From: Halobacteriaceae archaeon
GTDB taxonomy: Archaea; Halobacteriota; Halobacteria; Halobacteriales; Halobacteriaceae
Assembly (NCBI GenBank): GCA_042216675.1
Contig: JBDGTS010000055.1
Span: 1 to 39,032 of the forward strand
Reading direction: 5' to 3'
Length of the DNA stretch: 39,032 nucleotides
Shown: positions 2,963-35,502 of the stretch, one piece after another
Layout: each line of letters starts with the position of its first letter
How positions within the stretch are numbered: position 1 is the stretch's first letter
Notes under the pieces: model-generated
What the model saw: only the letters and a program-made list of their open reading frames with translations
The model's database searches: none
Told to the model about the DNA's origin: nothing
Program-made: the position numbers and the translations under genes

Positions 2963-3693
2963 CCGACAAGTTCGCTCTCCTGTCGCTCCCGGATGGCCTG
3001 TGCGCGTTCGGCGGCCTCGGCGGCGGCCTCCTCGCGGCCCAGTTCCTCGAGGGCGCGGGCCTTCTCCTCGAACACGTCGGCCTGCCGGAACTCGAGGCGA
3101 ATGGCATTATCCAGACAGTCCGCGGCCTCCTCGTGGCGGCCCTGCTCGTTCTCGATGAAGCCGAGGTTGTACCACGCCTGTCCGAGTCGGTCGTCCTCGC
3201 GGACGGCCGCCTCGGCGTGCTCGTAGGCCTCGGTCGTCTCGCCGAACTCCCAGAGTGCGTAGGCGAGGTTCGTGTGCGCCTCCGCGGCGAAGGGGCCCTC
3301 CTCGGCGACGTTGAGGGCCGCGCGGTGAGCGTCGATGGCGGCGTCCCACTCTTCGAGTTCGGCGTGGCCGATGCCCTTGTTCACCCACGCCTCCTGTTCG
3401 AGGGCGTCGTCCTCGGCGAAGCGCGCCGCACGTTCGAAGGCGTCGGTGGCCTGTTCGTGGCGGTTGATGCCCATGTAGTCGAGGCCGACGTCGATGAGGC
3501 TGTCGGCGTCCACCTCCTCTTTCGGGAAGTGGCTGTCGTCGAGGAGGTCCGCGACGACGCGGGCGTCGACTGGGTCGACCTCGTCGGGGTCGACGTCGAG
3601 TTCCGGCGGGTCGAGGTCGAAGCCCTCGTACGGGTCGTCGAAGCCGGGGCCCGACGAGAACTCGTGGGGGTCGCGCTCGGGGTCGTCGGTCAT
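2959..3693 (-). CDS. Tetratricopeptide repeat protein
   Basis: Start MTDDPERD (3693); repeated TPR units AWVNKG, AHTNLAYAL, AWYNLG, EKARAL. Confidence 0.85.
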   Translation of the reverse strand: MTDDPERDPHEFSSGPGFDDPYEGFDLDPPELDVDPDEVDPVDARVVADLLDDSHFPKEEVDADSLIDVGLDYMGINRHEQATDAFERAARFAEDDALEQEAWVNKGIGHAELEEWDAAIDAHRAALNVAEEGPFAAEAHTNLAYALWEFGETTEAYEHAEAAVREDDRLGQAWYNLGFIENEQGRHEEAADCLDNAIRLEFRQADVFEEKARALEELGREEAAAEAAERAQAIRERQESELVG

Positions 3694-14758: not shown

Positions 14759-15315
14759 GGGTCCTCGCCCTCCGTGAGGACGGTCCGCACGCGGTCGTGA
14801 AACGCCTCCAGCGACCCCGTGTTGTCGATGACCACGTCGGCGTCGGCCATCGCCGCGTCCATCCCGAAGCCGCGCTCCCGTTCGTCGCGCTCCCGGAGCG
14901 ACTCGCCGCCGTCGGCGGCGCTCGCGTCCCGGCCTCGCTCGGTGACCCGCCGTTTGCGCGTCTCGAAGGGGGCCTCGATGGAGACGAGGCGGAAGTCGTC
15001 GCCGAACGCCGCCTCGAAGCGCTCGACTTCCACGTCGCTCCGAATCCCGTCCACGAGGACGGTGTCGGCGTCGGACTCGGCGAGGGCCTCCTCGATGACC
15101 GGCAGCGACCGCTCGGCGATGGCGGCCGGCCCGCCCTCCGCCCGGAGCGCTTGTGCCACCTCGCCGTGGTGGGTGTCGGGGTCGAGGTCCCGCTCGCGGC
15201 AGGCGGCGCGAATCACGTCGCCCATCGTCACCACGGGGACGTCGAGGTCACGGGCGACGGCCGCGGCCTCGCTCTTGCCGCTCCCGGGGAGGCCGACGAT
15301 GCCGATGACTTGCAT
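14755..15315 (-). CDS. UPF0200 P-loop kinase (archaeal dephospho-CoA kinase-like)
   Basis: MQVIGIVGLPGSGKS Walker A, MGDVIR, DGIRS, ERDERERGFG. Confidence 0.85.
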   Translation of the reverse strand: MQVIGIVGLPGSGKSEAAAVARDLDVPVVTMGDVIRAACRERDLDPDTHHGEVAQALRAEGGPAAIAERSLPVIEEALAESDADTVLVDGIRSDVEVERFEAAFGDDFRLVSIEAPFETRKRRVTERGRDASAADGGESLRERDERERGFGMDAAMADADVVIDNTGSLEAFHDRVRTVLTEGEDP

Positions 15316-21561: not shown

Positions 21562-23724
21562 GTGGCAGCCGACTACGCGGCGTTCTTCCCGAAGCCCGAC
21601 CCCTACGAGAATCAGGGCGCGGCGATGGACGACATCGCCGAAGCCCTCGACGACGGCCGCGACGTGCTCTTCGAGGGGGCCTGTGGCACCGGGAAGACGC
21701 TGGCCGCACTCGCACCGGCGCTGGCGCACGCCCGCGAAGCGGACAAGACGGTGGTCATCACGACGAGCGTCCACCAGCAGATGCGCCAGTTCGTCGCGGA
21801 GGCGCGCGACATCGCCGAGCAAGAGGACATCCGCGCCGTCGTCTTCCGCGGCAAGGGCTCGATGTGCCACATCGACGTGGGCTTCGAGGAGTGTCAGGTC
21901 CTGCGGGACAACACCCGGGACCTCGTGGAGGCGGAAACCGACGCCGCCCAACTCCGAGAGCGTGCGGACGAACTACTCGCCGCGGCCCGCGAGGGCGACG
22001 AGGAAGCCGCGGAAGCCCGGTCGGCCGTGATGGACGAACTCGACGCCGTCGAGGACGAACTCGACGAACAGGCCGACGCGGCGACGTGTGACCACTACCG
22101 GGAGAACCTCACCGCCGACACCGACGCCTTCTACTCGTGGCTGTTCGACGGCGTGCGCACCCCCGACGAGGTGTACGAGTGGGCCGGCGAACGCGGCATG
22201 TGCGGCTACGAACTGCTCAAGGACGGCATCGAGGGCGTCGATTTGGTCGTCTGCAACTACAATCACCTGCTCGACCCGGCGATTCGGACCCAGTTCTTCC
22301 GGTGGTTGGGCCGCGACCCCGAGGACGTCATCGCCGTCTTCGACGAGGCACACAACGTCGCCGACGCGGCCCGCGACCACGCCGCGACGACGGTGAGCGA
22401 ACGCACCCTCGACGGCGCCCTCGCCGAACTCGACGACACGGACGACCCGCGGGCCGACGCCGCGGCGAACGTCGTCGAGGCGTTCCGAGACGCCCTCGTG
22501 GCCACCTACGAGGACGAACTCGGATTCGGTGACCGCGAGGAAATCGGCGAGAACTGGACGGACGTGGTCGTGCGCAACGAAGACAGACGCGACGACGTGA
22601 CCCTCGCGTTCCTCGACCGGTACAGCGGCCGGGGCATCGGCCGGGACCTCGAACAGGCCGTCGCGCTCGGGTCGGACTTAGACGAGGAGTACGAGACGGC
22701 GTACAAGCGCGGCGAGACGACGACGAGAAAGGAGTGTCAAACCCTCCAAGCCGCGGAGTTCGTCCGCGAGTACGTCCGCGAGGGCGACGACGGTGGGCGC
22801 TACCCCGTCGTCGGCGTGCGCCGCGACGCCGGCACCGACGAGGTGTACGGCCGCGCGGAGCTGTACACCTGCATCCCCTCGCGGGTGACCCGGGACCTGT
22901 TCGACGACGTGTACGCGAGCGTCCTGATGAGCGCCACGCTCCGGCCCTTCGACGTGAGCGCCGACGTCCTCGGACTGGAGGACCCGGCGACGATGGCCTA
23001 CGGCCTAACCTTCCCCCCGGAGAACCGCCGCACCCTCGCCGTCGACGTGCCCGCGCTGTTCGCAAGCCGGCGCGACGACGGCGAGGTACAGGAGACGGTG
23101 GCCGGAGCGCTTCGGGACGCGATTCGGTTCACGCCCGGCAACGCCCTGTTCTTCTTTCCGTCCTACGCCGAGGCCGAGCGCTACCACGACTTGCTGGCCG
23201 ACGTGGACGCGACGCGCTACCTCGACGAACCGGGGACGCGCGCCGAGGAGTTGCGACAATCGTTCGTGGACGGCGACGACGGCGTTCTGTTCACCTCGCT
23301 GTGGGGTACGCTCGCCGAGGGCGTCAGTTTCGACGGCGACGACGCGCACACCGTCGCCGTCGTCGGCGTGCCGTACCCGCACCTCGACGACAGGGCCGAG
23401 GCCGTGCAAGAGGCCTACGACGACGCCTTCGACGGCGACGACGCCGGCTGGCGCTACGCCGTCGAGATTCCGACGGTGCGCAAGACGCGACAGGCCCTCG
23501 GACGGGTCCTCCGCTCGCCCGACGAGGTGGCGGTGCGGGCGCTCATCGACCGGCGCTACACCGAGGCGGGCGCCCGGGAGATGCCGGCCTACAGCGTCCG
23601 CGACGCCTTCCCCGAGGCCGAACGGGAGGAGATGGTCGACGTGGCGCCGACGAAACTCGGCTACGCGATGCTGAACTTCTACACCGACCGGGACGCGTGG
23701 CCGGGCGACCCGCCGACGCCCTAG
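21562..23724 (+). CDS. XPD/Rad3 (DinG-family) Fe-S DNA helicase
   Basis: Q motif PYENQ, GACGTGKT, Cys residues of the Fe-S domain, FDEAHN, MSATL, FFPSY, QALGRVLR. Confidence 0.92.
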   Translation: MAADYAAFFPKPDPYENQGAAMDDIAEALDDGRDVLFEGACGTGKTLAALAPALAHAREADKTVVITTSVHQQMRQFVAEARDIAEQEDIRAVVFRGKGSMCHIDVGFEECQVLRDNTRDLVEAETDAAQLRERADELLAAAREGDEEAAEARSAVMDELDAVEDELDEQADAATCDHYRENLTADTDAFYSWLFDGVRTPDEVYEWAGERGMCGYELLKDGIEGVDLVVCNYNHLLDPAIRTQFFRWLGRDPEDVIAVFDEAHNVADAARDHAATTVSERTLDGALAELDDTDDPRADAAANVVEAFRDALVATYEDELGFGDREEIGENWTDVVVRNEDRRDDVTLAFLDRYSGRGIGRDLEQAVALGSDLDEEYETAYKRGETTTRKECQTLQAAEFVREYVREGDDGGRYPVVGVRRDAGTDEVYGRAELYTCIPSRVTRDLFDDVYASVLMSATLRPFDVSADVLGLEDPATMAYGLTFPPENRRTLAVDVPALFASRRDDGEVQETVAGALRDAIRFTPGNALFFFPSYAEAERYHDLLADVDATRYLDEPGTRAEELRQSFVDGDDGVLFTSLWGTLAEGVSFDGDDAHTVAVVGVPYPHLDDRAEAVQEAYDDAFDGDDAGWRYAVEIPTVRKTRQALGRVLRSPDEVAVRALIDRRYTEAGAREMPAYSVRDAFPEAEREEMVDVAPTKLGYAMLNFYTDRDAWPGDPPTP

Positions 23725-24242
23725 GCCGGGAGCGAGACGCGGCCCGACGGCTCGCGGTACGTCGAGTCGAAGAACACCAACTGCTCGACGGTCCACCGCA
23801 CCGGGCCGACGGACTGGCCCTCCAGCCGTCGCGCCACGTCCGTCGACGTTTCGAGACCGAAGGAGGGCCCCTCCTCGTCGCCGCGCGCGAGGGTGACGTG
23901 GGGCACGTAGTCCTCGCCCTCCAGTCCGGGCACGGGGTCCACGACATCACAGAGTCGCTCGTGCGCCTCGCGGATGCCGGGACTCTCGACGGCGAGGTAG
24001 ACGACAGGCGACGACCCGGAGGTGGGCTCGTAGAACACGCCGATTTCGTCGATGCGCACCTCGAAGGGCGGCATGTCGGACAGCGCACGCCGCACGCGCT
24101 TCTCCGCGTCCGGTCCGCCGTGGTTCAGCCGCTTCACGAGGAGCGTGTAGGGGTCGCGGCGGTCCAACCCCCGGAGTTCCGGGGCCACCTCCTCGGCCAC
24201 CCGTTCGACGGCGGGCGGGAGGGGCACGTTCAGACTGTCCAC
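23721..24242 (-). CDS. 2H phosphoesterase (2'-5' RNA ligase family) protein
   Basis: C-terminal YVPHVTLAR; first motif reads PYTL rather than HxT. Confidence 0.8.
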   Translation of the reverse strand: MDSLNVPLPPAVERVAEEVAPELRGLDRRDPYTLLVKRLNHGGPDAEKRVRRALSDMPPFEVRIDEIGVFYEPTSGSSPVVYLAVESPGIREAHERLCDVVDPVPGLEGEDYVPHVTLARGDEEGPSFGLETSTDVARRLEGQSVGPVRWTVEQLVFFDSTYREPSGRVSLPA

Positions 24243-24279: not shown

Positions 24280-24471
24280 TCAGATGCGGTCGAGGAGCCA
24301 CAGCACGATGAGCAACAGCACGACGAGACCGATGAGCGGCCGGAACGGCCCCAACAGCCACCCCAGCGTGTGCAGGACCTCGCCGACGATTTCGAAGACG
24401 AGCCAGATGGCCACGAGGACGAGGATGATTTTCAGCAGGCTCTCGGCGTCGACGTCGGCGCGTGGGTCCAT
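24280..24471 (-). CDS. Small two-helix membrane protein
   Basis: 63 aa, LLKIILVLVAIWLV...PLIGLVVLLLIVLWLLDRI; TTAA box upstream. Confidence 0.78.
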   Translation of the reverse strand: MDPRADVDAESLLKIILVLVAIWLVFEIVGEVLHTLGWLLGPFRPLIGLVVLLLIVLWLLDRI

Positions 24472-24525
24472 GGTTCGGTATCGGCGAGCGCGAGATTAAG
24501 CGTTCGGGCCGGCCAGCGCCGTCCC

Positions 24526-24541
24526 GAAAGGCATTAATAAG
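24526..24541 (+). promoter_or_regulatory. BRE/TATA promoter of the arg leader and argG
   Basis: GAAAGGCATTAATAAG with TATA-like TTAATAAG at 24534-24541, 25 bp before the ATG at 24566. Confidence 0.7.
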
Positions 24542-24565
24542 CCCCGACGGAACGTTTTGCCAACG

Positions 24566-24652
24566 ATGACGCCCCCGGCATCCCACGGCACGGCGGCCGA
24601 CAGCCGGGGGGCCGTGTCTCTTCTCCGTCGGCGACGACCGGGGTCCCGATAG
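24566..24652 (+). CDS. Putative arginine-operon leader peptide (28 aa)
   Basis: MTPPASHGTAADSRGAVSLLRRRRPGSR*; four consecutive Arg codons at 24626-24637; ATG at the predicted TSS; directly upstream of argG. Confidence 0.65.
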   Translation: MTPPASHGTAADSRGAVSLLRRRRPGSR

Positions 24653-24729
24653 GACCCCCATCATCATTCTCACCACGTCGCCAGCCCAGTTCCGTTGATT
24701 GACCGCAGTTCCACCACCACACCACCACA

Positions 24730-25959
24730 ATGACAGACTCCACGAAAGTCGCGCTCGCCTTCTCGGGCGGGCTCGACACGACCGTTTGCGTCCCGCTGCT
24801 CGAAGAGGAATACGGCTACGACGAGGTCATCGGCGTCACCGTCGACGTCGGCCAACCCGCCGAAGAGTTCGACGAGGCCGAGGAGACGGCCGAGGCACTC
24901 GGCCTCGACCACTACGTCGTCGACGCGAAGGCCGAGTTCGCCGACCTCTGTTTCACCGGCGTCGCCGCCAACGCCGACTATCAGGGCTACCCGCTCGGGA
25001 CGGCGCTCGCGCGCCCCGTCATCGCGAACGCCATCCTCGACGTGGCCGAGGAGCAGGGCTGTAACGCCCTCGCGCACGGCTGCACCGGGAAGGGCAACGA
25101 CCAACTCCGCTTCGAGGCCGTCTGGCGCGCCACCGACATGGAAGTCATCGCGCCCGTCCGCGAACTCGGCCTCACCCGCGAGTGGGAACTCGAGTACGCC
25201 GAGGAGCGCGACCTGCCCGTCGAGGGCGGCAACGAGGGCGTCTGGTCCATCGACACGAACCTCTGGAGCCGTTCCATCGAGGGCGGGGATCTGGAGGACC
25301 CCGGCTACGTGCCCCCGGAGGACATCTACGACTGGACCGACCAGCCCGGCGAGGGCACCGAACTCGTCGACATCGAGTTCGAGGCGGGCGTCCCCGTCGC
25401 CGTCGACGGCGAGGAGATGGACCCCGTGCCGCTCATCGAGGAGTTGAACGAGCGCGCAGGTGCCCACGGCGTCGGCCGCACGGACATGATGGAGGACCGC
25501 ATCCTCGGGCTCAAGGTCCGCGAGAACTACGAGCATCCGGCCGCGACGACCCTGCTCACCGCCCACGAGGCGCTGGAGGGCCTCGTCCACACGAAGGCCG
25601 AGCGCACGTTCAAGCAGGACGTCGAGGCCGAGTGGGCCGAGTACGCCTACAAGGGCCTCGTCGACTCGCCGCTGATGAGCGCGCTGGAGGCGTTCATCGC
25701 GGAGACGCAGGAGACGGTGACGGGCACGGTGACGGTGAAGTTCGACGGCGGGCAGGCCCGCGCCGTCGCCCGCGAGAGCGAGTTCGCCGTCTACTCCGAG
25801 GAGGCCGCCTCCTTCAACACGGAGACGGTGGCCGGCATCGAGCAGTCCGACGCGACGGGCGTGGCGAAGTACCACGGCTTCCAGGAGCGGTTGGCCAACG
25901 CCGCGAAGGACCGCGCGCGTCCGGAACTGAGCACCGACGGGAGCGGCGACGACGAGTGA
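24730..25959 (+). CDS. argG: Argininosuccinate synthase
   Basis: AFSGGLDT, HGCTGKGNDQLRF, SIDTNLWSRSIEG motifs. Confidence 0.97.
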   Translation: MTDSTKVALAFSGGLDTTVCVPLLEEEYGYDEVIGVTVDVGQPAEEFDEAEETAEALGLDHYVVDAKAEFADLCFTGVAANADYQGYPLGTALARPVIANAILDVAEEQGCNALAHGCTGKGNDQLRFEAVWRATDMEVIAPVRELGLTREWELEYAEERDLPVEGGNEGVWSIDTNLWSRSIEGGDLEDPGYVPPEDIYDWTDQPGEGTELVDIEFEAGVPVAVDGEEMDPVPLIEELNERAGAHGVGRTDMMEDRILGLKVRENYEHPAATTLLTAHEALEGLVHTKAERTFKQDVEAEWAEYAYKGLVDSPLMSALEAFIAETQETVTGTVTVKFDGGQARAVARESEFAVYSEEAASFNTETVAGIEQSDATGVAKYHGFQERLANAAKDRARPELSTDGSGDDE

Positions 25960-25960
25960 G

Positions 25961-27415
25961 ATGACCGAGGACGGCCCGGGCGAGGACGTGGTGCGCCGGG
26001 AGCGCTTCAGCGGCGGCCCCGCACGCGAGTTCCTGTCGTCGCTCGCGGCCGACCGCCGCATCTTCGAGGCGGACCTCGCCGTGGACCGCGCGCACGTCGT
26101 GATGCTCGCGGAACAGGACGTCGTCGCAGACGAGGAGGCGGGCGACATCCTCGACGCCCTCGCTGGGGTCGAATCGGAGGGGCACGAGGCCCTGCCCGAC
26201 GGCGAGGATGTCCACGCCGCCATCGAGACGGCCGTCATCGACCGGGTCGGCCCCGTCGGCGGGAAGATGCACACCGCCCGCTCGCGCAACGACGAGGTGG
26301 CGGCCTGCATCCGCTACCGCCTGCGCGCGGACCTACTGGACGCGCTGGACGCGACGCTGGCGCTCCGCGAGACGCTGGCGAGCGTCGCCGCCGACCACAC
26401 CGAGACGCTGCTGCCGGGCTACACGCACCTCCAGCCGGCACAGCCGACGACGCTCGCGCACTACCTGCTGTCCTACGAGGGCGCCGTCGCCCGCGACACG
26501 GCGCGCCTGCTCGACGCCTACGACCGGACGAACCGGTCACCGCTCGGCGCGGCGGCGCTGGCGGGCACCCCCTTCGACGTGGACAGAGAACGCGTCGCCG
26601 ACCTCCTCGGCTTCGAGGCCGTCGTGGAGAACGCGATGGACGCGGCGGCGGGCCGCGACTTCCTGCTGGAGGCCGTCTCGGCGCTCGCGACGCACGCCAC
26701 GCACCTCTCGGGCATCGCCGAGGACCTCGTGGTGTACGCGAACAAGGGACTGGTGGACCTCGACGACGACTACGCCTCCACCTCCTCCATCATGCCCCAG
26801 AAGAAGAACCCGGACACGCTCGAGTTGGTCCGGGCGACGGCCGGCAACGCGGCGGGGGCGCTACAGGGCCTGCTGACGACCCTGAAGGGCCTGCCGCGTG
26901 CCTACAACCGCGACCTCCAGCGTGCGACGCCGCACGCGTGGACGGCCGTCGACGCCGTCAGCGACGCGACGGACGTGGTGGCGGGCGCCGTCGCCACCGC
27001 CGACTGGCCGGAGGACGCGATGGCCGAGGCGGCGGGCGAGGGCTTCTCGACGGCCACCGGCGTCGCGGACCTGTTGGCGATGCACGGCCTGCCGTTCCGG
27101 ACGGCCCACGAAATCGTCGCCGCGGCGGCCGAACGCGGGGCCGACGTGGAGGCCCTGAGCGAGGCGACGGAGGCCGTCGTCGGCGAACCGCTCGGGTCAC
27201 TCGTCCCCATCGAGGACGTGGAACGGGCGCTGTCCCCCGCCGAGAGCGTGGCGATGCGCGACTCGCAGGGCGGCCCGGCACCCGAGCGGACGGCCGCCGC
27301 GGCCGCGGACGCCCTCGACGCCGTCACGGCCGACCGCGAGGCGGTGACGGAGCGCCGGCGGGCACTCGACGACGCGCGCGAGACGCTTCGTGCGGAGGTG
27401 GCATCCTACTCGTGA
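25961..27415 (+). CDS. argH: Argininosuccinate lyase
   Basis: HTARSRND, GYTHLQPAQ, SSIMPQKKNP signature. Confidence 0.97.
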   Translation: MTEDGPGEDVVRRERFSGGPAREFLSSLAADRRIFEADLAVDRAHVVMLAEQDVVADEEAGDILDALAGVESEGHEALPDGEDVHAAIETAVIDRVGPVGGKMHTARSRNDEVAACIRYRLRADLLDALDATLALRETLASVAADHTETLLPGYTHLQPAQPTTLAHYLLSYEGAVARDTARLLDAYDRTNRSPLGAAALAGTPFDVDRERVADLLGFEAVVENAMDAAAGRDFLLEAVSALATHATHLSGIAEDLVVYANKGLVDLDDDYASTSSIMPQKKNPDTLELVRATAGNAAGALQGLLTTLKGLPRAYNRDLQRATPHAWTAVDAVSDATDVVAGAVATADWPEDAMAEAAGEGFSTATGVADLLAMHGLPFRTAHEIVAAAAERGADVEALSEATEAVVGEPLGSLVPIEDVERALSPAESVAMRDSQGGPAPERTAAAAADALDAVTADREAVTERRRALDDARETLRAEVASYS

Positions 27416-27501
27416 CCCTAGTACCACATACCTGATACGTTCAGGGGAAACCCGCGGTTGCGAGCGTCTGTACGCCGATAGCGGCGGCTGTGAAACACAT
27501 A

Positions 27502-27530
27502 TTTTTTCTGGTACTTTCGACACCCTTAAG
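27502..27530 (+). promoter_or_regulatory. T-tract after argH and internal promoter for lysW(argW)-argF
   Basis: T6 at 27502-27507 and CTTAAG at 27525-27530, ~29 bp before the lysW ATG at 27559. Confidence 0.55.
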
Positions 27531-27558
27531 TGAACGCCGAGGGAACGTGGAGACACGT

Positions 27559-27723
27559 ATGGCTGAATGTGTCGAGTGCGGGGCCGAACTGGACCTGCAC
27601 GAGGATCTGGAGGTCGGGGAGATCGTCGACTGCCCCACCTGTGGCACGGAACTCGAAGTGATCGACGTCGACCCCGCGGTGCTCGATACCGCGCCCGAAC
27701 TCGAAGAGGACTGGGGGGAGTGA
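27559..27723 (+). CDS. lysW: Amino-group carrier protein LysW/ArgW
   Basis: CVECG...CPTCG zinc ribbon and C-terminal EEDWGE signature. Confidence 0.96.
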   Translation: MAECVECGAELDLHEDLEVGEIVDCPTCGTELEVIDVDPAVLDTAPELEEDWGE

Positions 27724-27753
27724 CGTGACGGCGGCCCCCGGGAGGTGGTCAGC

Positions 27754-28611
27754 GTGAAGGTCGGCCTGCTCTACTCCCGCATCCGGCGGGACGAGAAGCT
27801 ACTGCTCTCGGAGCTTCGGGAGCGGGGCCACGAGGTCGAGAAAATCGACGTGCGGCGCCAGCGGTTCGGCCTGCACGACGCGCCCGAGGACTTCGAGAAC
27901 CTCGACGTCGTGCTCGACCGCTGTGGCGCGACCAGCCGGAGCCTCTACGTCACGCGCTTCCTTGACGCCTACGGGGTCCCCGTCGTCAACAGTCACGAGA
28001 CGGCGCGCATCTGCGCCGACAAGGTGGAGAACAGCCTCGCTCTCGCGGAGGCCGGCGTGCCGACGCCGACGACGGAAGTCGCGTTCACCGTCGAGAGCGC
28101 CCTCGACATCATCGAGGACTTCGGCTACCCCTGCGTTCTCAAGCCCGTCGTGGGCTCGTGGGGGAACCTGATGGCGAAACTCGACAGCCGCGACGCCGCG
28201 GAGGCCATTCTCGAACACAAGGAGACGCTCGGCCACTACGAGCACAAGGTGTTCTACATCCAGGAGTTCGTGGAGAAGCCGGGCCGCGACATCCGCGTGC
28301 TGGCGACCGACGGCGAACCCGTGGCGGCGATGGTGCGCTCCTCGGACCACTGGCTCACCAACGCCGCACGCGGCGCCGAAACCGACGCGTTCGAGTTAGA
28401 CGACAGAGCGCGCGAACTGGTCGCCGAGGCCTCCGAGGCCGTCGGCGGCGGACTGCTCGGCGTCGACCTGATGGAGACGGGCGACGACTACACCGTCCAC
28501 GAGGTCAACCACACCGTCGAGTTCAAGGCGCTCAACGACACCGTCGAGACAGACGTGGCCGCGGACGTGGTGTCGTGGCTCGAAGCCCGCGCCGGGGAGG
28601 GGAGCCGATGA
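27754..28611 (+). CDS. argX: LysW-glutamate ligase (RimK-type ATP-grasp, ArgX/LysX)
   Basis: KPVVGSWG, YIQEFVEKPGRDIR, EVNHTVEF; GGAGGTG SD before the GTG at 27754; inside the arg operon. Confidence 0.92.
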   Translation: MKVGLLYSRIRRDEKLLLSELRERGHEVEKIDVRRQRFGLHDAPEDFENLDVVLDRCGATSRSLYVTRFLDAYGVPVVNSHETARICADKVENSLALAEAGVPTPTTEVAFTVESALDIIEDFGYPCVLKPVVGSWGNLMAKLDSRDAAEAILEHKETLGHYEHKVFYIQEFVEKPGRDIRVLATDGEPVAAMVRSSDHWLTNAARGAETDAFELDDRARELVAEASEAVGGGLLGVDLMETGDDYTVHEVNHTVEFKALNDTVETDVAADVVSWLEARAGEGSR

Positions 28612-29642
28612 CTCTCACCGCCGGCGTCGTCGGCGGGAGCGGCTTCACGGGCGGCGAACTGCTCCGCCTGCTGGCCGACCACCCCGAGTTCGAGGTGGCA
28701 CAGGCCACCAGTCGCTCGTACACGAACCGCTCGGTGGGCACGGTCCACCCGAACCTGCGGGACCTCGATTTGCGCTTCTCGGACCCCGAGGACCTCGAGT
28801 CGGTGGACGTACTGTTCGCCGCGACGCCCCACGGCGTCTCGATGGCGCGCATCGACGCGTTCCGGAACGCCGCGGACACCGTCGTGGACCTCTCGGCGGA
28901 CTTCCGTCTGGACAGTGCCGCCCCCTACGACGAGTACTACGACGGCCACGACAGGCCCGAACTCCTCGCCGAGTCCGAGTACGCGCTTCCGGAACTGAAC
29001 CGCGAGAACCTGCCGGGCGCGGACCTCATCGCGGCCGGTGGCTGTAACGCGACGGCGACGCTCCTCGCCCTGCATCCCCTCTTCGAGGCGGGCGTCGTCG
29101 AGGACCCGACGACGGTCGTCGACGTGAAAGTCGGCTCCTCGGAGGGCGGCGCGGGCGGCGGCCAAGCCTCCGCGCACGCCGAGCGCTCGGGCGTCGTGCG
29201 CCCGTACGCGCCGACCGGCCACCGCCACGAGGCCGAAATCGAGCAGTTCCTCGGCACCGGGGTCAACTTCACCGTCCACGCCGTCGATATGATTCGCGGC
29301 GCGTCGGCGACGTGCCACCTCATCCCCGAGGAGATGCCCTCGAAGGCCGACCTCTGGAAAGCCCTGCGAGGCGCCTACGGCGACGAACCGTTCGTCCGCT
29401 TCGTCGCGGGGTCCGGCGCCGTCTACCGCTACCCCGAACCGAAGGCCGTCGCTGGCACGAACTACGTCGAACTCGGCTTCGAACTCGACGAGGACAACGG
29501 CCGCGTCGTCCTGTTCTCGGCCATCGACAACATGATGAAAGGGTCGGCCGGACAGGCCGTCCACGCCGCGAACGTCGCCCTCGGCTTCGAGGAGACGGCG
29601 GGACTCGACTTCCGCGGGTTACATCCCGTCGGAGCGCCATAG
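28608..29642 (+). CDS. argC: [LysW]-glutamyl-phosphate reductase (ArgC/LysY)
   Basis: VVGGSGFTGGEL, DLSADFR, GGCNAT, IDNMMKGSAGQA. Confidence 0.94.
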   Translation: MTLTAGVVGGSGFTGGELLRLLADHPEFEVAQATSRSYTNRSVGTVHPNLRDLDLRFSDPEDLESVDVLFAATPHGVSMARIDAFRNAADTVVDLSADFRLDSAAPYDEYYDGHDRPELLAESEYALPELNRENLPGADLIAAGGCNATATLLALHPLFEAGVVEDPTTVVDVKVGSSEGGAGGGQASAHAERSGVVRPYAPTGHRHEAEIEQFLGTGVNFTVHAVDMIRGASATCHLIPEEMPSKADLWKALRGAYGDEPFVRFVAGSGAVYRYPEPKAVAGTNYVELGFELDEDNGRVVLFSAIDNMMKGSAGQAVHAANVALGFEETAGLDFRGLHPVGAP

Positions 29643-29678
29643 CCGAGCCATGACCGCCACACAGTGGAGGGCGAACGG

Positions 29679-30494
29679 ATGACCGTGGTCGTGAAAATCG
29701 GCGGCGCGCGCGCCGTCGACCCGTCGGGCGCACTCGCCGACGTGGCCGACGTGGACGACGACGTGGTCGTGGTCCACGGCGGGTCGACGGCCGTCGACGA
29801 CCTTCTGGACCGCCTCGACATCGAACCGACCTACGTCGAAACGCCCGACGGCGTCGTGGGTCGCTTCACCGACGCCGAGACCATGGAGGCGTTCACGATG
29901 GCGATGAGCGCGGTGAACACGGACCTCGTCGCGGGCCTCCAGAACGAGGGCGTCGACGCCGTTGGCCTCTCCGGCGTCGACGGCAGACTGCTCACCGGTC
30001 CCCGGAAGTCCGCCGTCCGCGTCGTCGAGGACGGCACGAAGAAGATCAAGCGCGGCGACCACTCCGGCGCGATTCGGGACGTGAACACCGACTTGCTGGA
30101 GACGCTCCTCGCCGACCACGTGCCCGTCGTCGGCCCGCCGATGCTCGGCGACGACGACGGCGACTGGCTTCCCGTCAACAGCGACGCGGACCGGGCGGCC
30201 GCGGCCATCGCGGGCGCTCTCGACGCCAGCCTCGTCGTCCTGACCGACGTGCCCGGACTGCTTCGGGACGTGGACGACGGAGACTCGCTCATCGAACGCG
30301 TCGACTCCCCCGACGCGCTTCGGGAGGCCCGCACGGCCGCCGAGGGCTTCATGGGCAAGAAAGTCATGGCGGCCGAGGAAGCGCTCGAAGGCGGCGCGAC
30401 GCGCGTCGTCGTCGCCTCCGCGAACGCGGACGCGCCCATCGGCGCGGCCCTGTCCGGCGCCGGGACCACCTTCACACCTGACTGCATCTCATGA
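29679..30494 (+). CDS. argB: [LysW]-glutamate kinase (ArgB/LysZ)
   Basis: VVKIGG, VHGG, NSDAD, LTDVPG, MGKK amino-acid kinase motifs. Confidence 0.93.
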   Translation: MTVVVKIGGARAVDPSGALADVADVDDDVVVVHGGSTAVDDLLDRLDIEPTYVETPDGVVGRFTDAETMEAFTMAMSAVNTDLVAGLQNEGVDAVGLSGVDGRLLTGPRKSAVRVVEDGTKKIKRGDHSGAIRDVNTDLLETLLADHVPVVGPPMLGDDDGDWLPVNSDADRAAAAIAGALDASLVVLTDVPGLLRDVDDGDSLIERVDSPDALREARTAAEGFMGKKVMAAEEALEGGATRVVVASANADAPIGAALSGAGTTFTPDCIS

Positions 30495-31621
30495 ACTTCG
30501 TCACGTCCGAGAAACCGATTCGCATCGAACGCGGAGAGGGACCGTACCTCTACGACGACGGCGGCACCGAGTATCTCGACTGCGGCGCGAGCTACGCCTG
30601 CACGCCGCTCGGCCACTCTCACCCCGGCGTCACCGACGCCGTCTGCGAGCAGGCCCGCGAACTGACCTTCGTGCAGGCCTCCTACCCGACAGACGTGCGG
30701 GACCGGGCCTACGCCACCCTCGCCGCGGCCGCACCCGGCGACGTCGAGAACGTGTGGCTCTGTAACTCCGGGACCGAAGCCAACGAGGCCGCACTCAAGT
30801 TCGCCCGGAGCGCCACCGAGCGCTCGAAAATCGTCGCCACGACCCGGGGCTTCCACGGCCGCACGATGGGCGCACTCGCGACGACGTGGAAAGACGAGTA
30901 CAAGGAGCCGTTCGAACCGCTCATCGGCGACGTGGAGTTCGTGCCGTACGGCGACGAAGCGGAACTCCGCGACGCCGTCGACGACGAGACGGCGGGCGTC
31001 ATCATGGAGCCGATTCAGGGCGAGGGCGGCGTCAACCCCGCGCCCGAGGGCTACCTCGACGCCGCGCGCGAGGCCACCGAGGACGCGGGCGCGGCCCTCA
31101 TCCTCGACGAGGTGCAGACGGGCGTCGGCCGCACGGGCACGCTGTGGGCCTGCGAACAGGCCGGCGTGGTCCCCGACATGCTGACGACGGCGAAGGGGCT
31201 GGGCAACGGCCTGCCGGTCGGCGCCACCCTCGTCGCCGACTGGGTGGCCGACGGCGCCGGCTCCCACAACGCGACGTTCAGCGGCGGTCCCGTCATCAGC
31301 GCCGCCGTGGACGAGACGGTGTCCACCGTCGTCGAGGAGGAGTGGCCCGCTCACGCCGAGGCGGTGGGCTCGCACCTCCGCGAGCAGATTCGCGCACAGG
31401 CCGGCGACGACGTGCGCGAGGTGCGCGGGTCGGGCCTGATGGTCGGCGTCGAGGTGAAGCGGGGGGCGAACCGCATCACGAAGCGCCTCGCGCTGAACCA
31501 CGAGATTCTCGCGCTCCCGGCAGGCCGGACCGTCGTGCGCTTCCTCCCACCGCTGGTCATCGAGGAGGCCCACGCCGACGAGATCGCGACGGCCCTCGCC
31601 GACGTGCTGGAGGGGATGTGA
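30491..31621 (+). CDS. argD: [LysW]-ornithine aminotransferase (ArgD/LysJ)
   Basis: NSGTEANEAA, FHGRT, EPIQGEGG, DEVQTG, AKGLGNG class-III aminotransferase motifs. Confidence 0.94.
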   Translation: MNFVTSEKPIRIERGEGPYLYDDGGTEYLDCGASYACTPLGHSHPGVTDAVCEQARELTFVQASYPTDVRDRAYATLAAAAPGDVENVWLCNSGTEANEAALKFARSATERSKIVATTRGFHGRTMGALATTWKDEYKEPFEPLIGDVEFVPYGDEAELRDAVDDETAGVIMEPIQGEGGVNPAPEGYLDAAREATEDAGAALILDEVQTGVGRTGTLWACEQAGVVPDMLTTAKGLGNGLPVGATLVADWVADGAGSHNATFSGGPVISAAVDETVSTVVEEEWPAHAEAVGSHLREQIRAQAGDDVREVRGSGLMVGVEVKRGANRITKRLALNHEILALPAGRTVVRFLPPLVIEEAHADEIATALADVLEGM

Positions 31622-32655
31622 TGAGCGTCACTCTCGACCGCGAGGCGGCCCGTGATCTCGTCTTCGACCTCGTGGCGACGCCCTCCCCCTCAGGCGAGGA
31701 AGCGGAGTGCGCGGAGCTGCTCGTGGACTTCTTCGAGTCCCACGGCCGGGAGGCGTGGATCGACGACATCGGCAACGTCCGCGCGCCGGCCGACGACAGC
31801 GTTCTGCTCACGTCCCACATCGACACGGTGCCGGGCGACATCCCCGTCGAAATCGAGGACGACGAACTGTGGGGCCGCGGCAGCGTGGACGCGAAGGGGC
31901 CGCTGGCGGCGATGGCCGCGGTGGCCGTGGAGACGGGTGTCTCATTCGCCGGCGTCGTCGGCGAGGAAGTCGACTCCCGCGGCGCGCGGCACCTCGTCGA
32001 GAACCGCGAGGACGCGCCCGAGGCCGTCGTCAACGGCGAGCCCTCGGGCTGGGAAGGCATCACGCTCGGCTACCGGGGACTGCTGGCTGGCCGCTACGTC
32101 TCCACGTCCGAGCAGGGCCACTCCTCGCGCCCCGACAAGAACGCGATTCAGGAGGCCATCGACTGGTGGAGCGCCGTCGAGGACAGATTCGACCCCGACG
32201 AGTGGACGCCCATCTTCGAGCAGGTGACGACCAAACCCATCAGCATCGACGGCGGTCCGACTCCGGACGGCCTCTCCGTCGAGGCGACGATGGAGGTCCA
32301 ACTCCGCGTCCCGCCTCAGTACACCCCCGAAGAAGTGCGGGAAATCGCCGACGGCGAACTCGACGGGGGGACCGTCAACTGGTACGATTCGGTCCACCCG
32401 GTCATGGAGAGCTCCCGAAACCCCGTCGCACGGGCGTTCCGGGCGGCGATCCGCACGACGGACGGCGACCCGACGATGCTCCGCAAGACGGGGACCAGTG
32501 ACATGAACGTCTTCGCCCGGTCGTGGGACTGTCCGATGGTGACCTACGGCCCCGGCGACTCGGACCTCGACCACGCGCCGAACGAGCACCTCGAACTCGG
32601 GGAGTTCGACCGCAGCGTGGCCGTTCTCGAACGCGTGTGTGATCGCCTCGCATGA
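31621..32655 (+). CDS. argE: [LysW]-ornithine hydrolase (ArgE/LysK, M20 family)
   Basis: SHIDTVPG, GRGSVDAKG, GEE, GTSDMN, DHAPNEH. Confidence 0.93.
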   Translation: MSVTLDREAARDLVFDLVATPSPSGEEAECAELLVDFFESHGREAWIDDIGNVRAPADDSVLLTSHIDTVPGDIPVEIEDDELWGRGSVDAKGPLAAMAAVAVETGVSFAGVVGEEVDSRGARHLVENREDAPEAVVNGEPSGWEGITLGYRGLLAGRYVSTSEQGHSSRPDKNAIQEAIDWWSAVEDRFDPDEWTPIFEQVTTKPISIDGGPTPDGLSVEATMEVQLRVPPQYTPEEVREIADGELDGGTVNWYDSVHPVMESSRNPVARAFRAAIRTTDGDPTMLRKTGTSDMNVFARSWDCPMVTYGPGDSDLDHAPNEHLELGEFDRSVAVLERVCDRLA

Positions 32656-33557
32656 CCCTCGACGACGACCCAGCCCATCTGATAGACGTCGACGACTTGA
32701 CCCGCGAGGACGTCTCGCAGGTCCTCGACCGCGCGGCCGCGCTGAAGGCCGGCGAAACGACCCCCCGCTTTCCCGACTACACGCTCGGGATGCTGTTCGA
32801 GAAGCCCAGCACGCGGACGCGGGTGTCCTTCGAGACGGGGATGACCCAACTCGGCGGGCACGCCATCTTCCTCGGCGAGGACGACATCCAACTCGGCCGG
32901 GGCGAACCCATCAAGGACACCTCGCGGACCCTCTCGCGCTACGTGGACGCGGTGATGGCGCGCCTCTTCGAGCACGAGAAGATGGAGGAACTGGCCGAAT
33001 ACGCCGACGTGCCCGTCGTCAACGGCCTCACCGACCGGGCACACCCCTGTCAGACGCTCGCGGACCTGCTGACGATACGGGAGCGCTTCCCCGACTTCGA
33101 CGCCTCGGTGACGTGGGTCGGCGACGGCAACAACGTCGCGCAGTCCTTCGCCATTGGCTGTGCCCTCGTCGGCATCGACCTCACGGTGGCGACGCCGGAG
33201 GGCTACGGTCTCGACGACGAGGTGCTGGCTCGCGCCGACGGACTCGGGAACGCTCCCGAGACGACCCACGACCCCGTCGCGGCCGTCGAGGGCGCGGACG
33301 TGGTGTACACGGACGTCTGGGTCAGCATGGGCGAGGAGTCGGCTCGCGAGGAGAAACTGCCCGACTTCGAGGGCTTTCAGGTGAACGCCGACCTGCTCAC
33401 GCACGCGCCGGAGGCAGTGGTGATGCACTGTCTCCCCGCCCACCGCGGCGAGGAGATCACCGACGAGATCGTGGAGAGCGACCGCGCCATCGTCTTCGAC
33501 CAAGCCGAGAACCGCCTGCACGCCCAGAAAGGGTTGCTCGTCGAAGTGCTGGACTGA
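32652..33557 (+). CDS. argF: Ornithine carbamoyltransferase
   Basis: KPSTRTR, HPCQTLAD, VWVSMG, HCLP. Confidence 0.97.
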   Translation: MTLDDDPAHLIDVDDLTREDVSQVLDRAAALKAGETTPRFPDYTLGMLFEKPSTRTRVSFETGMTQLGGHAIFLGEDDIQLGRGEPIKDTSRTLSRYVDAVMARLFEHEKMEELAEYADVPVVNGLTDRAHPCQTLADLLTIRERFPDFDASVTWVGDGNNVAQSFAIGCALVGIDLTVATPEGYGLDDEVLARADGLGNAPETTHDPVAAVEGADVVYTDVWVSMGEESAREEKLPDFEGFQVNADLLTHAPEAVVMHCLPAHRGEEITDEIVESDRAIVFDQAENRLHAQKGLLVEVLD

Positions 33558-33599: not shown

Positions 33600-33977
33600 A
33601 TGGAGCCATCGAGACGTGACCTGTTGACGACGCTGGGTAGCGTGGGGGCCGCGACGGTGCTGGCCGGCTGTTCCAGCGGGGGTGACTCGGGGTCAGCGTC
33701 ACCGACGAGCGCTGCCGGCCCGGAGCGTGGGCCGGTGGAGACGTTCCGGCAGTTCAACACCGCACTGAAGAACGGCAACGAGCAGAAGGCAAAGACGTAC
33801 CTCCACCCGGACTGGAACACCCCCGTCGAGGACATGGACAGCGCCGCGGACCCCTCGGTCAGGCTACTGGAGCAGTCGGACACGGAGGCGACGGTCGAAG
33901 TCGACTCCGAGCAAGTCACCGTCCACATCATCATGCGCGTCCACGACGGCGAGTGGAAGATCTACGACTCCGAGTGA
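33600..33977 (+). CDS. Small Tat lipoprotein (possible NTF2-like fold)
   Basis: SRRDLL...VLAGC; C-terminal DGEWKIY strand pattern. Confidence 0.8.
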   Translation: MEPSRRDLLTTLGSVGAATVLAGCSSGGDSGSASPTSAAGPERGPVETFRQFNTALKNGNEQKAKTYLHPDWNTPVEDMDSAADPSVRLLEQSDTEATVEVDSEQVTVHIIMRVHDGEWKIYDSE

Positions 33978-34016
33978 ACCGCCTCCTTTTTGCCCGGCGC
34001 CCGCCTCCGTTCGCCC

Positions 34017-35276
34017 ATGAGTCTCGACCTCACCGCGGCGCCCGAGGAACCCCCCGCCGAGGCCACGGACGGCGCGTGGCTGACCTGCATCGAGTGCGGG
34101 GAGACGTTCGCGCCGTTCGCGGCCATCCGGTACACCTGCGACGACTGCGGGGGCCTGCTCGAAGTCCGCTACGCCGACCAGCCCGGCTTCGACGACTTCG
34201 AGGGCCGCGGCGTCTGGCGCTACAGCGCCGCCCTGCCCTTCGCGGAGGGCGTGACGCTCCCCGAGGGCGACACGCCCCTGCACCGCGTGCCGCGCCTCGA
34301 AGACGAGATCGGCGTGAACGCGCTCCGAATCAAACACGAGGGGATGAACCCCACCGGGTCGTTCAAGGACCGCGGGATGACGGTGGGCGTCCGCGCGGCC
34401 CAAGCCGTCGGCGTGGACCGACTGGCCTGCGCCTCGACGGGCAACACGTCGGCGGCGCTCTCCGCGTACGGCTCTCGCGCCGACATGCAGACGCTCGTCC
34501 TCCTGCCCGCCGGGAAAGTCGCCGCGGGGAAGGTGGCGCAGGCCAGCCTCCACGGCGCACGCATCCTCGAAGTGGACGGCAACTTCGACTCCTGTCTCGA
34601 CATCGTACAGGACCTCGCGGACCGGGGCGAGGCGTACCTGCTGAACTCCTTGAACCCGTTCCGACTGGAGGGCCAGAAGACCATCGGCCTCGAAATTCTG
34701 GAGGCCTTCGAGGCCGACTACGGCCGCCTGCCCGACCGCATCGTCCTGCCGGTGGGCAACGCGGGCAACACCGCCGCCCTCTACAAGTGCTTCCGCGAAC
34801 TCGTGCAGGCCGACGCCATCGACCCCGACGACGTGCCGATGCTCACGGGCGTCCAAGCCGAAGGCGCGGCCCCGATGGTCGAGGCCATCGAGAACGGCTG
34901 GGACCACGTGGAGCGCTGGGACGAGGTGGAGACGCGCGCGACGGCCATCCGCATCGGCAACCCCGTGAACGCGCCGAAGGCCCTTCCCGGCATCCGACAG
35001 ACGGGCGGCACCGCCGTCGCCGTCTCGGACGAGGAAATCACCGACGCCCAGCGCACCCTCGCGGGCGAGGGCGTCGGCGTCGAACCGGCCTCGGCGGCGT
35101 CCGTCGCGGGCCTCCGAAAACTCCGAAACAGCGGCGTCGTCGCCGACGACGAGGACGTGGTCTGTCTGACCACGGGACACCTGCTCAAGGACCCCGAAGC
35201 GGCCGCGGCGGCCGGCAACGAACCCGAACCGGTGCCCAACGACACGGACGCGGTGCTGGAGCACCTCGCCGACTGA
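34017..35276 (+). CDS. thrC: Threonine synthase
   Basis: N-terminal CxxC..CxxC, NPTGSFKDRG, ASTGNT, PVGNAGN, LTTGHLLKD. Confidence 0.95.
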   Translation: MSLDLTAAPEEPPAEATDGAWLTCIECGETFAPFAAIRYTCDDCGGLLEVRYADQPGFDDFEGRGVWRYSAALPFAEGVTLPEGDTPLHRVPRLEDEIGVNALRIKHEGMNPTGSFKDRGMTVGVRAAQAVGVDRLACASTGNTSAALSAYGSRADMQTLVLLPAGKVAAGKVAQASLHGARILEVDGNFDSCLDIVQDLADRGEAYLLNSLNPFRLEGQKTIGLEILEAFEADYGRLPDRIVLPVGNAGNTAALYKCFRELVQADAIDPDDVPMLTGVQAEGAAPMVEAIENGWDHVERWDEVETRATAIRIGNPVNAPKALPGIRQTGGTAVAVSDEEITDAQRTLAGEGVGVEPASAASVAGLRKLRNSGVVADDEDVVCLTTGHLLKDPEAAAAAGNEPEPVPNDTDAVLEHLAD

Positions 35277-35331
35277 GCGTCGGACGCCCGTCTGCCCGGG
35301 GTTTTTTGCACGATAGTTCGTAGGACAGAGT

Positions 35332-35502
35332 ATGGCGACCGACGGCGAGACGCCGGAGAACGACGCGGTTCGGGTCGCCGCACTCGAAGGAGCCATCGCC
35401 GCACTAGAGGCGCGACTCGCGCAGGCAGAGGGGACAGAGCGGGAGCAACTGCGGGCGGAGTTGGCCGCGCGGCGGCGCGAACTGGACCGGGTGCGCGACT
35501 AG
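35332..35502 (+). CDS. Small coiled-coil hypothetical protein (56 aa, not in the ORF track)
   Basis: Manual translation MATDGETPENDAVRVAALEGAIAALEARLAQAEGTEREQLRAELAARRRELDRVRD*; its stop overlaps the serA stop (CTAG). Confidence 0.6.
   Translation: MATDGETPENDAVRVAALEGAIAALEARLAQAEGTEREQLRAELAARRRELDRVRD

Follow-up and report, generated by a model that had tools for sequence, protein, structure and literature searches.

The window analysed here, that is, the whole stretch of 39,032 nucleotides (nt) forming positions 1 to 39,032 of contig JBDGTS010000055.1 from a Halobacteriaceae archaeon (assembly GCA_042216675.1), carries nine arginine genes, argG to argF, which are closely spaced on one strand. 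The leader of argG contains a short upstream open reading frame (uORF) with consecutive arginine codons near its end and a hairpin over its stop codon. Judging from its comparison with related loci, this element is probably a leaderless, arginine-sensing leader peptide that acts as a ribosome-mediated attenuator of the argG-argF operon. The features of the leader and the operon, with the basis of each assignment, are as follows.

24524..24541 (+): promoter P1, composed of CGAAA, which resembles a B recognition element (BRE), and the TATA box ATTAATAAG; read from the sequence, the AT-rich position being conserved in relatives.
24566..24652 (+): leader-peptide uORF of 28 codons plus TAG, predicted to be leaderless; from its translation and the conservation of its frame.
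24626..24637 (+): run of Arg codons CGT CGG CGA CGA, the proposed stalling site; from the enrichment of Arg and CGA in the tails of relatives.
24630..24636 (+): 5' strand of the long-range helix P-long, GGCGACG, inside the Arg codons; from the centroid fold.
24640..24658 (+): hairpin P1, GGGGTCC/GGACCCC, 7 base pairs with a 5-nt loop, which holds the uORF stop; from the local fold and covariation.
24659..24676 (+): G-free linker after the hairpin; read from the sequence, G being rare here in relatives.
24676..24682 (+): 3' strand of P-long, CGTCGCC, about 43 nt 5' of the argG ATG; from complementarity and the strand-swap test in class-1 loci (see below).
24711..24729 (+): tract of C and A only, abutting the argG start (ATG at 24730); read from the sequence.
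24730..33557 (+): argG, argH, lysW/argW, lysX/argX, argC, argB, argD, argE/lysK and argF; from NCBIfam matches above curated cut-offs.

The TATA-like sequence TTAATAAG was located at 24534-24541 with CGAAA directly 5' of it, and the ATG at 24566 lies 32 nt past the first T of the TATA box. The peptide encoded from this ATG is MTPPASHGTAADSRGAVSLLRRRRPGSR. Within the TAG stop codon at 24650-24652, the T and the A are in the loop of hairpin P1 and the G is in its 3' arm; the local hairpin segment has a folding energy of -15.0 kcal/mol. P-long appears in the centroid fold of the window leader, and the z-score of its duplex relative to shuffled spacers is -1.79. The original prediction, which was made from this DNA alone, had placed the TATA box, the ATG, the uORF, the Arg run, the hairpin, the downstream complement and the C/A tract at these positions, and all of them hold to the base. 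It had also named CGC as the dominant Arg codon, and CGC was found to constitute 50% of the Arg codons in 515 long ORFs of the genome. A search of Rfam 15 at E values up to 10 gave no match in the leader. The best Rfam match in the scanned stretch was to the sodF small RNA (sRNA) at 24998-25085 on the minus strand, antisense within argG; its score was 29.6 bits against a gathering score of 46, and it was probably due to chance.

As the original prediction had proposed, the regions upstream of argG were compared across Halobacteria for a conserved uORF with its Arg run in frame and for covariation of the hairpin, and the outcome was positive. The comparison covered 110 argG loci of Halobacteria, which were taken from 30 genomes representing 12 families of the order and from a set of 80 named haloarchaeal loci (Haloferax, Halobacterium, Salarchaeum, Natrialba, Natrinema, Halorubrum, Halobaculum, Halomarina, Halovenus, Halolamina and others), some genomes being common to both sets. 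The set had no second genome of the window's genus, and its closest ArgG proteins were approximately 80% identical to that of the window. All of these loci share ancestry, so the counts given for them overstate their independence. In all 30 loci of the first set, a TATA box, an ATG approximately 25 nt further on, an ORF with an Arg-rich tail and a GC hairpin were found. A covariance model, R1, was built from nine elements; of the 80 named loci, 56 had a match at the expected place and in the expected orientation (E up to 0.05). Most of the remaining named loci were recovered by a simple uORF finder.

The reading frame of the uORF was then compared with the two shifted frames. Eight of the 110 loci were set aside because the wrong stem had been called and five had no ATG in the search range, which left 97 for the test. 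In each locus, the ATG with the strongest AT-rich 7-mer between -38 and -27 was chosen irrespective of frame, and the first in-frame stop was located. The ORF from the TATA-proximal ATG ended inside the hairpin or no more than 9 nt past it in 93 of the 97 loci, whereas the frames shifted by one and by two ended there in only 1 and 9 loci, respectively. The distance from the ATG to the hairpin ranges from 52 to 163 nt, and since the position of the stop is kept, the frame has been preserved through many changes in length. The onset of the AT-rich 7-mer was at -31 to -37 from the uORF ATG in 92 of the 97 loci. In 86 distinct sequences, A/T reached at least 90% at -31 to -28, and an A/G-rich stretch was present at -39 to -37. 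This spacing between the TATA box and the ATG matches that of haloarchaeal promoters and fits a leaderless transcript.

When the 17 loci that had not passed automatically, including those set aside, were read by eye, 13 of them were found to carry the element. Among the loci read in this way, five Halolamina-type uORFs start with GTG, and eight further loci have the element with a variant hairpin or with a start outside the rule. One locus has an Arg run and a hairpin with no start located, one has no stop in the loop, which was evidently lost, and three related divergent loci have the Arg-rich part in the middle of the peptide and a weak hairpin.

The tail of the uORF has a distinct codon content. 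The 82 distinct leader peptides have 20-57 codons (median 30), and Arg constitutes 41% of their last nine codons versus 14% of the rest of the uORF; every one of the 82 peptides has 2-6 Arg residues in its last 9 codons. CGA accounts for 74% and CGC for 4% of the 301 tail Arg codons. The argG genes of these loci, by comparison, have 1378 Arg codons, of which 2% are CGA and 73% are CGC, and in the 515 long ORFs of the window genome, 9.9% of the Arg codons are CGA. Pro was also found at 20% of the last nine codons, and many Natrialba-type loci have tails in which Arg and Pro alternate (CGA CCG). The Arg run often follows a short stretch that is rich in pyrimidines and encodes Phe, Leu or Ser. 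Either the Pro codons or this stretch could delay the ribosome or the polymerase.

In 20 of the 30 loci in which the distance was determined, the stop lies 15 nt past the last Arg codon; the distance is 12 nt in 4 loci and 21-24 nt in 5, and the one other locus was anchored in the wrong frame. A stop fixed in the hairpin in this manner would suit an arrest peptide that senses free arginine, with the ribosome stalling at the stop when arginine is present and expression being lowered as a result. Many tails end in Pro-stop or are rich in Gly, Ser and Pro, which would also agree with this explanation. However, nothing in the peptide is conserved beyond Arg: its end follows the hairpin, and its body varies in both length and sequence. 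Moreover, a run of rare cognate codons is generally typical of the sensing of transfer RNA (tRNA) charging and not of ligand binding in the exit tunnel. An arrest peptide is therefore quite improbable here.

The hairpin begins 0-5 nt past the last Arg codon, and 4-5 nt past it in the 30-locus set. Covariation was studied in a model-guided alignment of 61 elements, of which 60 lie before argG and one is a stray match; it should be considered that this alignment was fitted to the model, which biases it towards the structure of the model. At the six hairpin pairs, 99.3% of the cells in the 61 rows were paired, and the pairing fell to 23-77% when the partners were slid by one to three columns. Compensatory changes were detected in four of the six pairs, and the observed values were not reached in any of 500 shuffles. 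The stems share the fold and differ in sequence (GGGGTC/GACCCC, GGGCC/GGCCC, GGCCC/GGGCC, GGGGC/GCCCC and CTGGCC/GGCCAG), and the peptide ends in two or three residues that track the sequence of the stem, giving tails GS.., GL, GR or AL. Since the ends of the peptide vary with the stem, it is the RNA fold and the Arg codons that are conserved, with no peptide motif. RNAalifold predicted no pairs from a plain MAFFT alignment of 30 elements because the loop lengths differ among them.

The sequence that follows the hairpin is poor in G. In 87 distinct spacers between the hairpin and argG, G accounted for 1-3% of the first 15 nt past the hairpin versus 15-31% beyond. The overall composition also changes sharply at the hairpin, the GC content being approximately 73% in the uORF bodies versus approximately 52% in the spacers.

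The element was found to be specific to the argG leader. In the window genome, the model gave one significant match, which was the argG leader itself (42 bits, E 4e-8), and the next match scored 21 bits (E 0.016). A broader model gave exactly one match in each of 73 of the 151 genomes of the class (E up to 0.001), and wherever coordinates were compared, this match was the site before argG. In one genus, none of the 19 genomes was matched by the broader model, yet one of them (L019) has a divergent form of the element that was recognised by eye; the misses thus reflect the sensitivity of the model. No such uORF was found before argG in 20 genomes from 16 other, non-halophilic families of the phylum. 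In the non-halophilic L119, L120, L121 and L136, the arginine genes are arranged differently, there is no uORF, and argG closely follows another ORF, which ends like the C-terminus of what we take to be the large subunit of carbamoyl-phosphate synthase.

The window genome was also scanned for TATA-linked short ORFs with residue runs. There were 65 of these, among which there was a single run of Trp but no run of His, Phe or Ile. Two CGA-rich short ORFs with Arg runs were located elsewhere in the genome, at 15095-15172 (-) of contig C28 and at 3392-3556 (+) of contig C56. The genes downstream of them are unrelated and have no visible link to arginine; presumably, these encode a lipoprotein resembling a phosphate-binding protein and a rhodanese/metallo-beta-lactamase-like protein, respectively.

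Two classes of leader were distinguished among the 87 distinct spacers. In class 1 (43 spacers, including that of the window), no TATA-like element was seen before argG; therefore, argG must share the transcript of the uORF. The spacer of this class is short, with a median of 86 nt, and Halobacterium and Salarchaeum species provide laboratory examples of it. In class 2 (44 spacers, including those of Haloferax, Natrialba, Natrinema, Halorubrum and Halobaculum), a second TATA box precedes argG at a leaderless distance. C and A together form 75% of the last 30 nt before argG in class 1 versus 49% in class 2. A T-tract of at least four residues is present in 35 of the 44 class-2 leaders, at a median of 52 nt past the hairpin (approximately 46 nt in Haloferax) and with a C following it in 28 of the 35; a tract of this length is present in 5 of the 43 class-1 leaders. 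Between the T-tract and the TATA box of argG, class-2 leaders have a conserved AT-rich block with a TAGC/TAGGC motif, which is at 600-695 of locus L060 (Haloferax gibbonsii) and has similar counterparts in L017, L018, L021, L063, L067 and L088. The block of Haloferax contains the palindrome GCCTATAGGC, and such blocks could be candidate transcription-factor sites for the second promoter.

The separate argG promoter in 44 of the 87 leaders, together with the T-tract that follows the uORF unit in 35 of these, would be expected if the unit were an independent small gene, encoding a basic peptide or a small RNA of approximately 100-140 nt that acts in trans or is unrelated to the control of argG. 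On the other hand, the position and the orientation of the element before argG are kept in all loci examined, with a single copy per genome, and the body of the peptide is not conserved. In the other 43 leaders, that of the window included, the lack of a second TATA box obliges argG to use the same transcript. An independent gene is thus very improbable.

In addition to forming hairpin P1, the leader can pair its Arg-codon region with a segment downstream of the hairpin. Of the 87 spacers, 17 contain a perfect 7-mer complement to the 14 nt immediately 5' of the hairpin, and the same-sense, reversed and complemented controls gave 3, 2 and 1, respectively. Sixteen of these 17 spacers belong to class 1, in which there is no second promoter. 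The partner sequences vary by lineage, each matching its own Arg region. When strands were swapped among 37 class-1 loci with distinct 18-nt segments, the duplex energy was -17.8 kcal/mol for own partners and -16.1 kcal/mol for swapped ones (z -4.1; 0 of 2000 permutations). RNAalifold predicted the helix in the Halobacterium-type group and, in a short form, in Haloferax. A permutation of 6-mer matches did not give a significant result (45 of 500). In all loci except one, 6-64 nt separate the end of the 3' strand from the argG ATG, and at some loci the distance is 6-18 nt. The pairing of the Arg run with CGTCGCC, which the original prediction had noted, thus proved to be part of a long-range helix whose strands change together in loci lacking a second promoter.

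The Arg codons lie in one of the two strands of a conserved helix, and this might also mean that the uORF is translated and needed in cis without sensing arginine. In such a case, it would keep the leader open or maintain the coupling of polymerase and ribosome, and the CGA repeats would serve nucleic-acid contact. Consistent with this possibility, the body of the uORF shows no protein selection, and some tails have two Arg codons only. Nevertheless, despite the varying lengths of the leaders, the frame always reads the repeat as Arg and never as Asp or Thr, and diverged lineages still keep Arg, encoded by CGG or by CGA codons separated by Pro codons. The element is, moreover, tied solely to the arginine operon. 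The share of CGA in the tail was 77% in leaders with the downstream complement and 72% in those without it, and it was equal in both leader classes; therefore, the RNA helix does not explain the preference for CGA. Considering these data, a uORF that does not sense arginine is unlikely.

An arginine-sensing attenuator could operate as follows. The transcript would begin at the ATG at 24566 or a few bases from it, and the short ORF would be translated from the 5' end. With ample charged tRNA-Arg, the ribosome would clear the four Arg codons, terminate at the TAG in hairpin P1 and depart. The leader would then fold into P1 and the helix between the Arg region and 24676-24682, and the expression of the operon would drop. 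When arginine is scarce, the ribosome would dwell on the Arg codons, mostly on the rare CGA, the CGA codons being taken as read by a single tRNA species. A ribosome dwelling there would mask both the 5' arm of P1 and the 5' strand of the long helix; the leader would consequently remain open and expression would rise. The coverage of the helix strand and the P1 arm was deduced from the geometry of known ribosome footprints, and by this geometry slow decoding of CGA at a low level of charged tRNA-Arg would hold the leader open. The folded state is expected to be the off state because the operon is biosynthetic. What the comparison establishes is the conserved frame with its start and stop, the Arg and CGA content of the tail, the covariation of the hairpin and of the strands of the long helix, and the single copy per genome before argG; that the uORF is translated, that it responds to arginine and in which direction it acts are inferred.

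These comparisons suggest that the stalling of a ribosome can report the scarcity of an amino acid in archaea as it does in bacteria. We lean slightly towards the wider view that, throughout Halobacteria, the ribosome serves as the arginine sensor and that its dwell time on the CGA codons, which abut the hairpin holding the stop, sets the fold of the leader; this would be the first such attenuator in Archaea.

Three candidates were considered for the step at which the fold of the leader would act on expression. The first is termination by a hairpin or a T-tract. In Haloferax volcanii, T-stretches followed by C, and also hairpins, were reported to terminate transcription in vivo (PMC7237163), and the T-tract with C of the class-2 leaders is the same motif as the one described in that report. 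Termination is therefore plausible, given the class-2 leaders and this report. The second is blocked initiation at argG, which is plausible for loci with 6-18 nt between the helix and the ATG, and the third is RNA decay. Hairpin P1 alone as a terminator was rejected by inference from the spacing, because a ribosome on the last Arg codons and a polymerase past the hairpin would overlap on the RNA. If the two were coupled, P1 would be blocked in both states, and if they were uncoupled, it would be free in both. The suggestion in the original prediction that stalling shields the C-rich tract from factor-dependent termination by aCPSF1/FttA found no support, since FttA is described as preferring U-rich RNA (2025 review) and the tract would be exposed regardless of stalling.

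Several observations weigh against an arginine-sensing attenuator, as does the shared ancestry of the loci mentioned above. The whole window leader showed no excess stability compared with its shuffled versions (z 0.33; 120 of 200 shuffles folded at least as well), and for this reason no claim is made from the fold of the window alone. In the same genome, at least four TATA-linked short ORFs with at least four consecutive Arg residues were found among the matches listed. The window leader taken alone is within chance expectation, and it is the comparison with relatives that carries the case. These two observations are also what would be expected if the ORF and the hairpin had arisen by chance in GC-rich intergenic DNA. 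Chance is extremely improbable, being contradicted by the conservation of the element, the frame test, the covariation and the uniqueness of the element genome-wide.

The GC content of the uORF body at the three codon positions is 0.70/0.74/0.76 versus 0.74/0.41/0.85 in argG, that is, the body has no protein-like periodicity. Because of this, the case for translation rests on the conservation of the frame and the start. An NCBIfam scan of four leader peptides and a Pfam scan of two of them gave no families. In view of this result and the lack of codon periodicity, the peptide itself is unlikely to be the product that matters. With respect to decoding, tRNA-Arg(UCG) was not found in the window's assembly, which is 80% complete.

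The long helix is invariant inside each of the groups analysed with RNAalifold. The duplex between the Arg region and the downstream segment differs only modestly from that with shuffled spacers (mean z -0.96), and a coding-region control pairs equally well, the leader being better in 37 of 87 comparisons. As to the output, argG of class 2 has a separate promoter, and in 35 of the 44 leaders a T-tract terminates the uORF unit; control in cis would require read-through there. The original prediction had stated that no bacterial-style terminator composed of a hairpin and a U-tract is present, and in agreement with this, the window leader was found to have no T-tract, nor was an alternative terminator/antiterminator hairpin pair found in it. 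For an argG locus of Haloferax, 23 public RNA runs were listed, all of them in the form of assembled contigs; in each of the four that were compared with the locus, one contig spans all 721 bases and is uninformative on the starts, ends and levels of transcripts.

Attenuation by leader peptides is a textbook mechanism of bacteria. As in trpL, hisL, pheL, leuL and thrL of enterobacteria, the biosynthetic operon here is preceded by a short ORF containing consecutive cognate codons, and these codons lie within an RNA strand whose fate depends on the position of the ribosome. Unlike these systems, the present element belongs to an archaeon, has a predicted leaderless start and no Shine-Dalgarno site, and holds its stop in the loop of a hairpin; the window has no hairpin with a U-tract and no evident pair of 2:3 and 3:4 hairpins. 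To our knowledge, arginine biosynthesis in enterobacteria is controlled via ArgR and not by a leader peptide. A uORF also precedes an arginine-metabolism gene in the case of the fungal arginine attenuator peptide (the uORF of CPA1 and arg-2), and a stop codon is the control site in TnaC. However, both of these systems need a conserved peptide that senses the free amino acid, whereas no motif beyond Arg is present here.

We know of neither Rho nor RNase G in archaea. These two factors are relevant to the comparison with Salmonella orf34 in the speF leader, where, according to the report, consecutive Arg codons signal arginine through ribosome pausing that selects messenger RNA folds (PMC6386406). 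The consecutive Arg codons in an upstream ORF are shared with the present element; in contrast, the gene controlled there is a polyamine gene and the read-out is via Rho and RNase G (PMC6386406). Mycobacterial polycysteine short ORFs, which are leaderless, are described as stalling ribosomes that block the formation of a structure shutting off the downstream gene (bioRxiv 10.1101/834739). The likeness lies in the leaderless first cistron, predicted in the present case, with a run of cognate codons. In the mycobacterial system as described in that report, the host is bacterial, the structure sequesters the ribosome-binding site and there are several loci per genome; the element studied here has no Shine-Dalgarno site, its helix ends 6-64 nt from the argG ATG, and one locus is present per genome.

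In full-text searches, with subscription journals and supplements outside their scope, no description was found of a uORF or leader peptide upstream of argG in an archaeon, nor of any archaeal case of attenuation by a leader peptide. In papers on ribosome profiling and in atlas papers for Haloferax and Halobacterium, argG is unmentioned in the main text. If the proposed mechanism is true, it would provide a read-out of the coupling between translation and RNA fate in Archaea without a bacterial-type terminator, Rho or a Shine-Dalgarno site. It would also account for the control of a nine-gene arginine operon, represent a case in which archaea employ a rare codon for regulation and offer a compact arginine-responsive switch for haloarchaeal genetics. 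Being class-wide, present in a single copy and composed of clear parts, namely the start, the Arg codons, the hairpin, the helix and, in half of the lineages, a T-tract, the element is testable in tractable haloarchaea such as Haloferax. Since ORFs of 20-57 codons escape gene callers, comparable sensors for other pathways may exist.

The surroundings of the arginine locus were examined as well. Past argF, two ORFs overlap on opposite strands, at 33864-35396 (-) and 34017-35276 (+), and the minus-strand ORF of 510 codons has no NCBIfam match. Upstream of the locus, a Rad3/XPD-type helicase is encoded at 21562-23724 (+), with a TIGR00604 score of 168 bits, which is below the cut-off of 247. Convergent with the helicase gene, 23721-24242 (-) has a weak match to 2',3'-cyclic phosphodiesterase / 2'-5' RNA ligase. 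Divergent from the promoter of the leader is a 63-codon ORF at 24280-24471 (-), for which there was no NCBIfam match. The start of a comparable ORF, in the same divergent orientation, was found upstream in the same-family loci L005, L007, L010, L012, L013, L016 and L020, and the neighbourhood of this ORF seems to be conserved.

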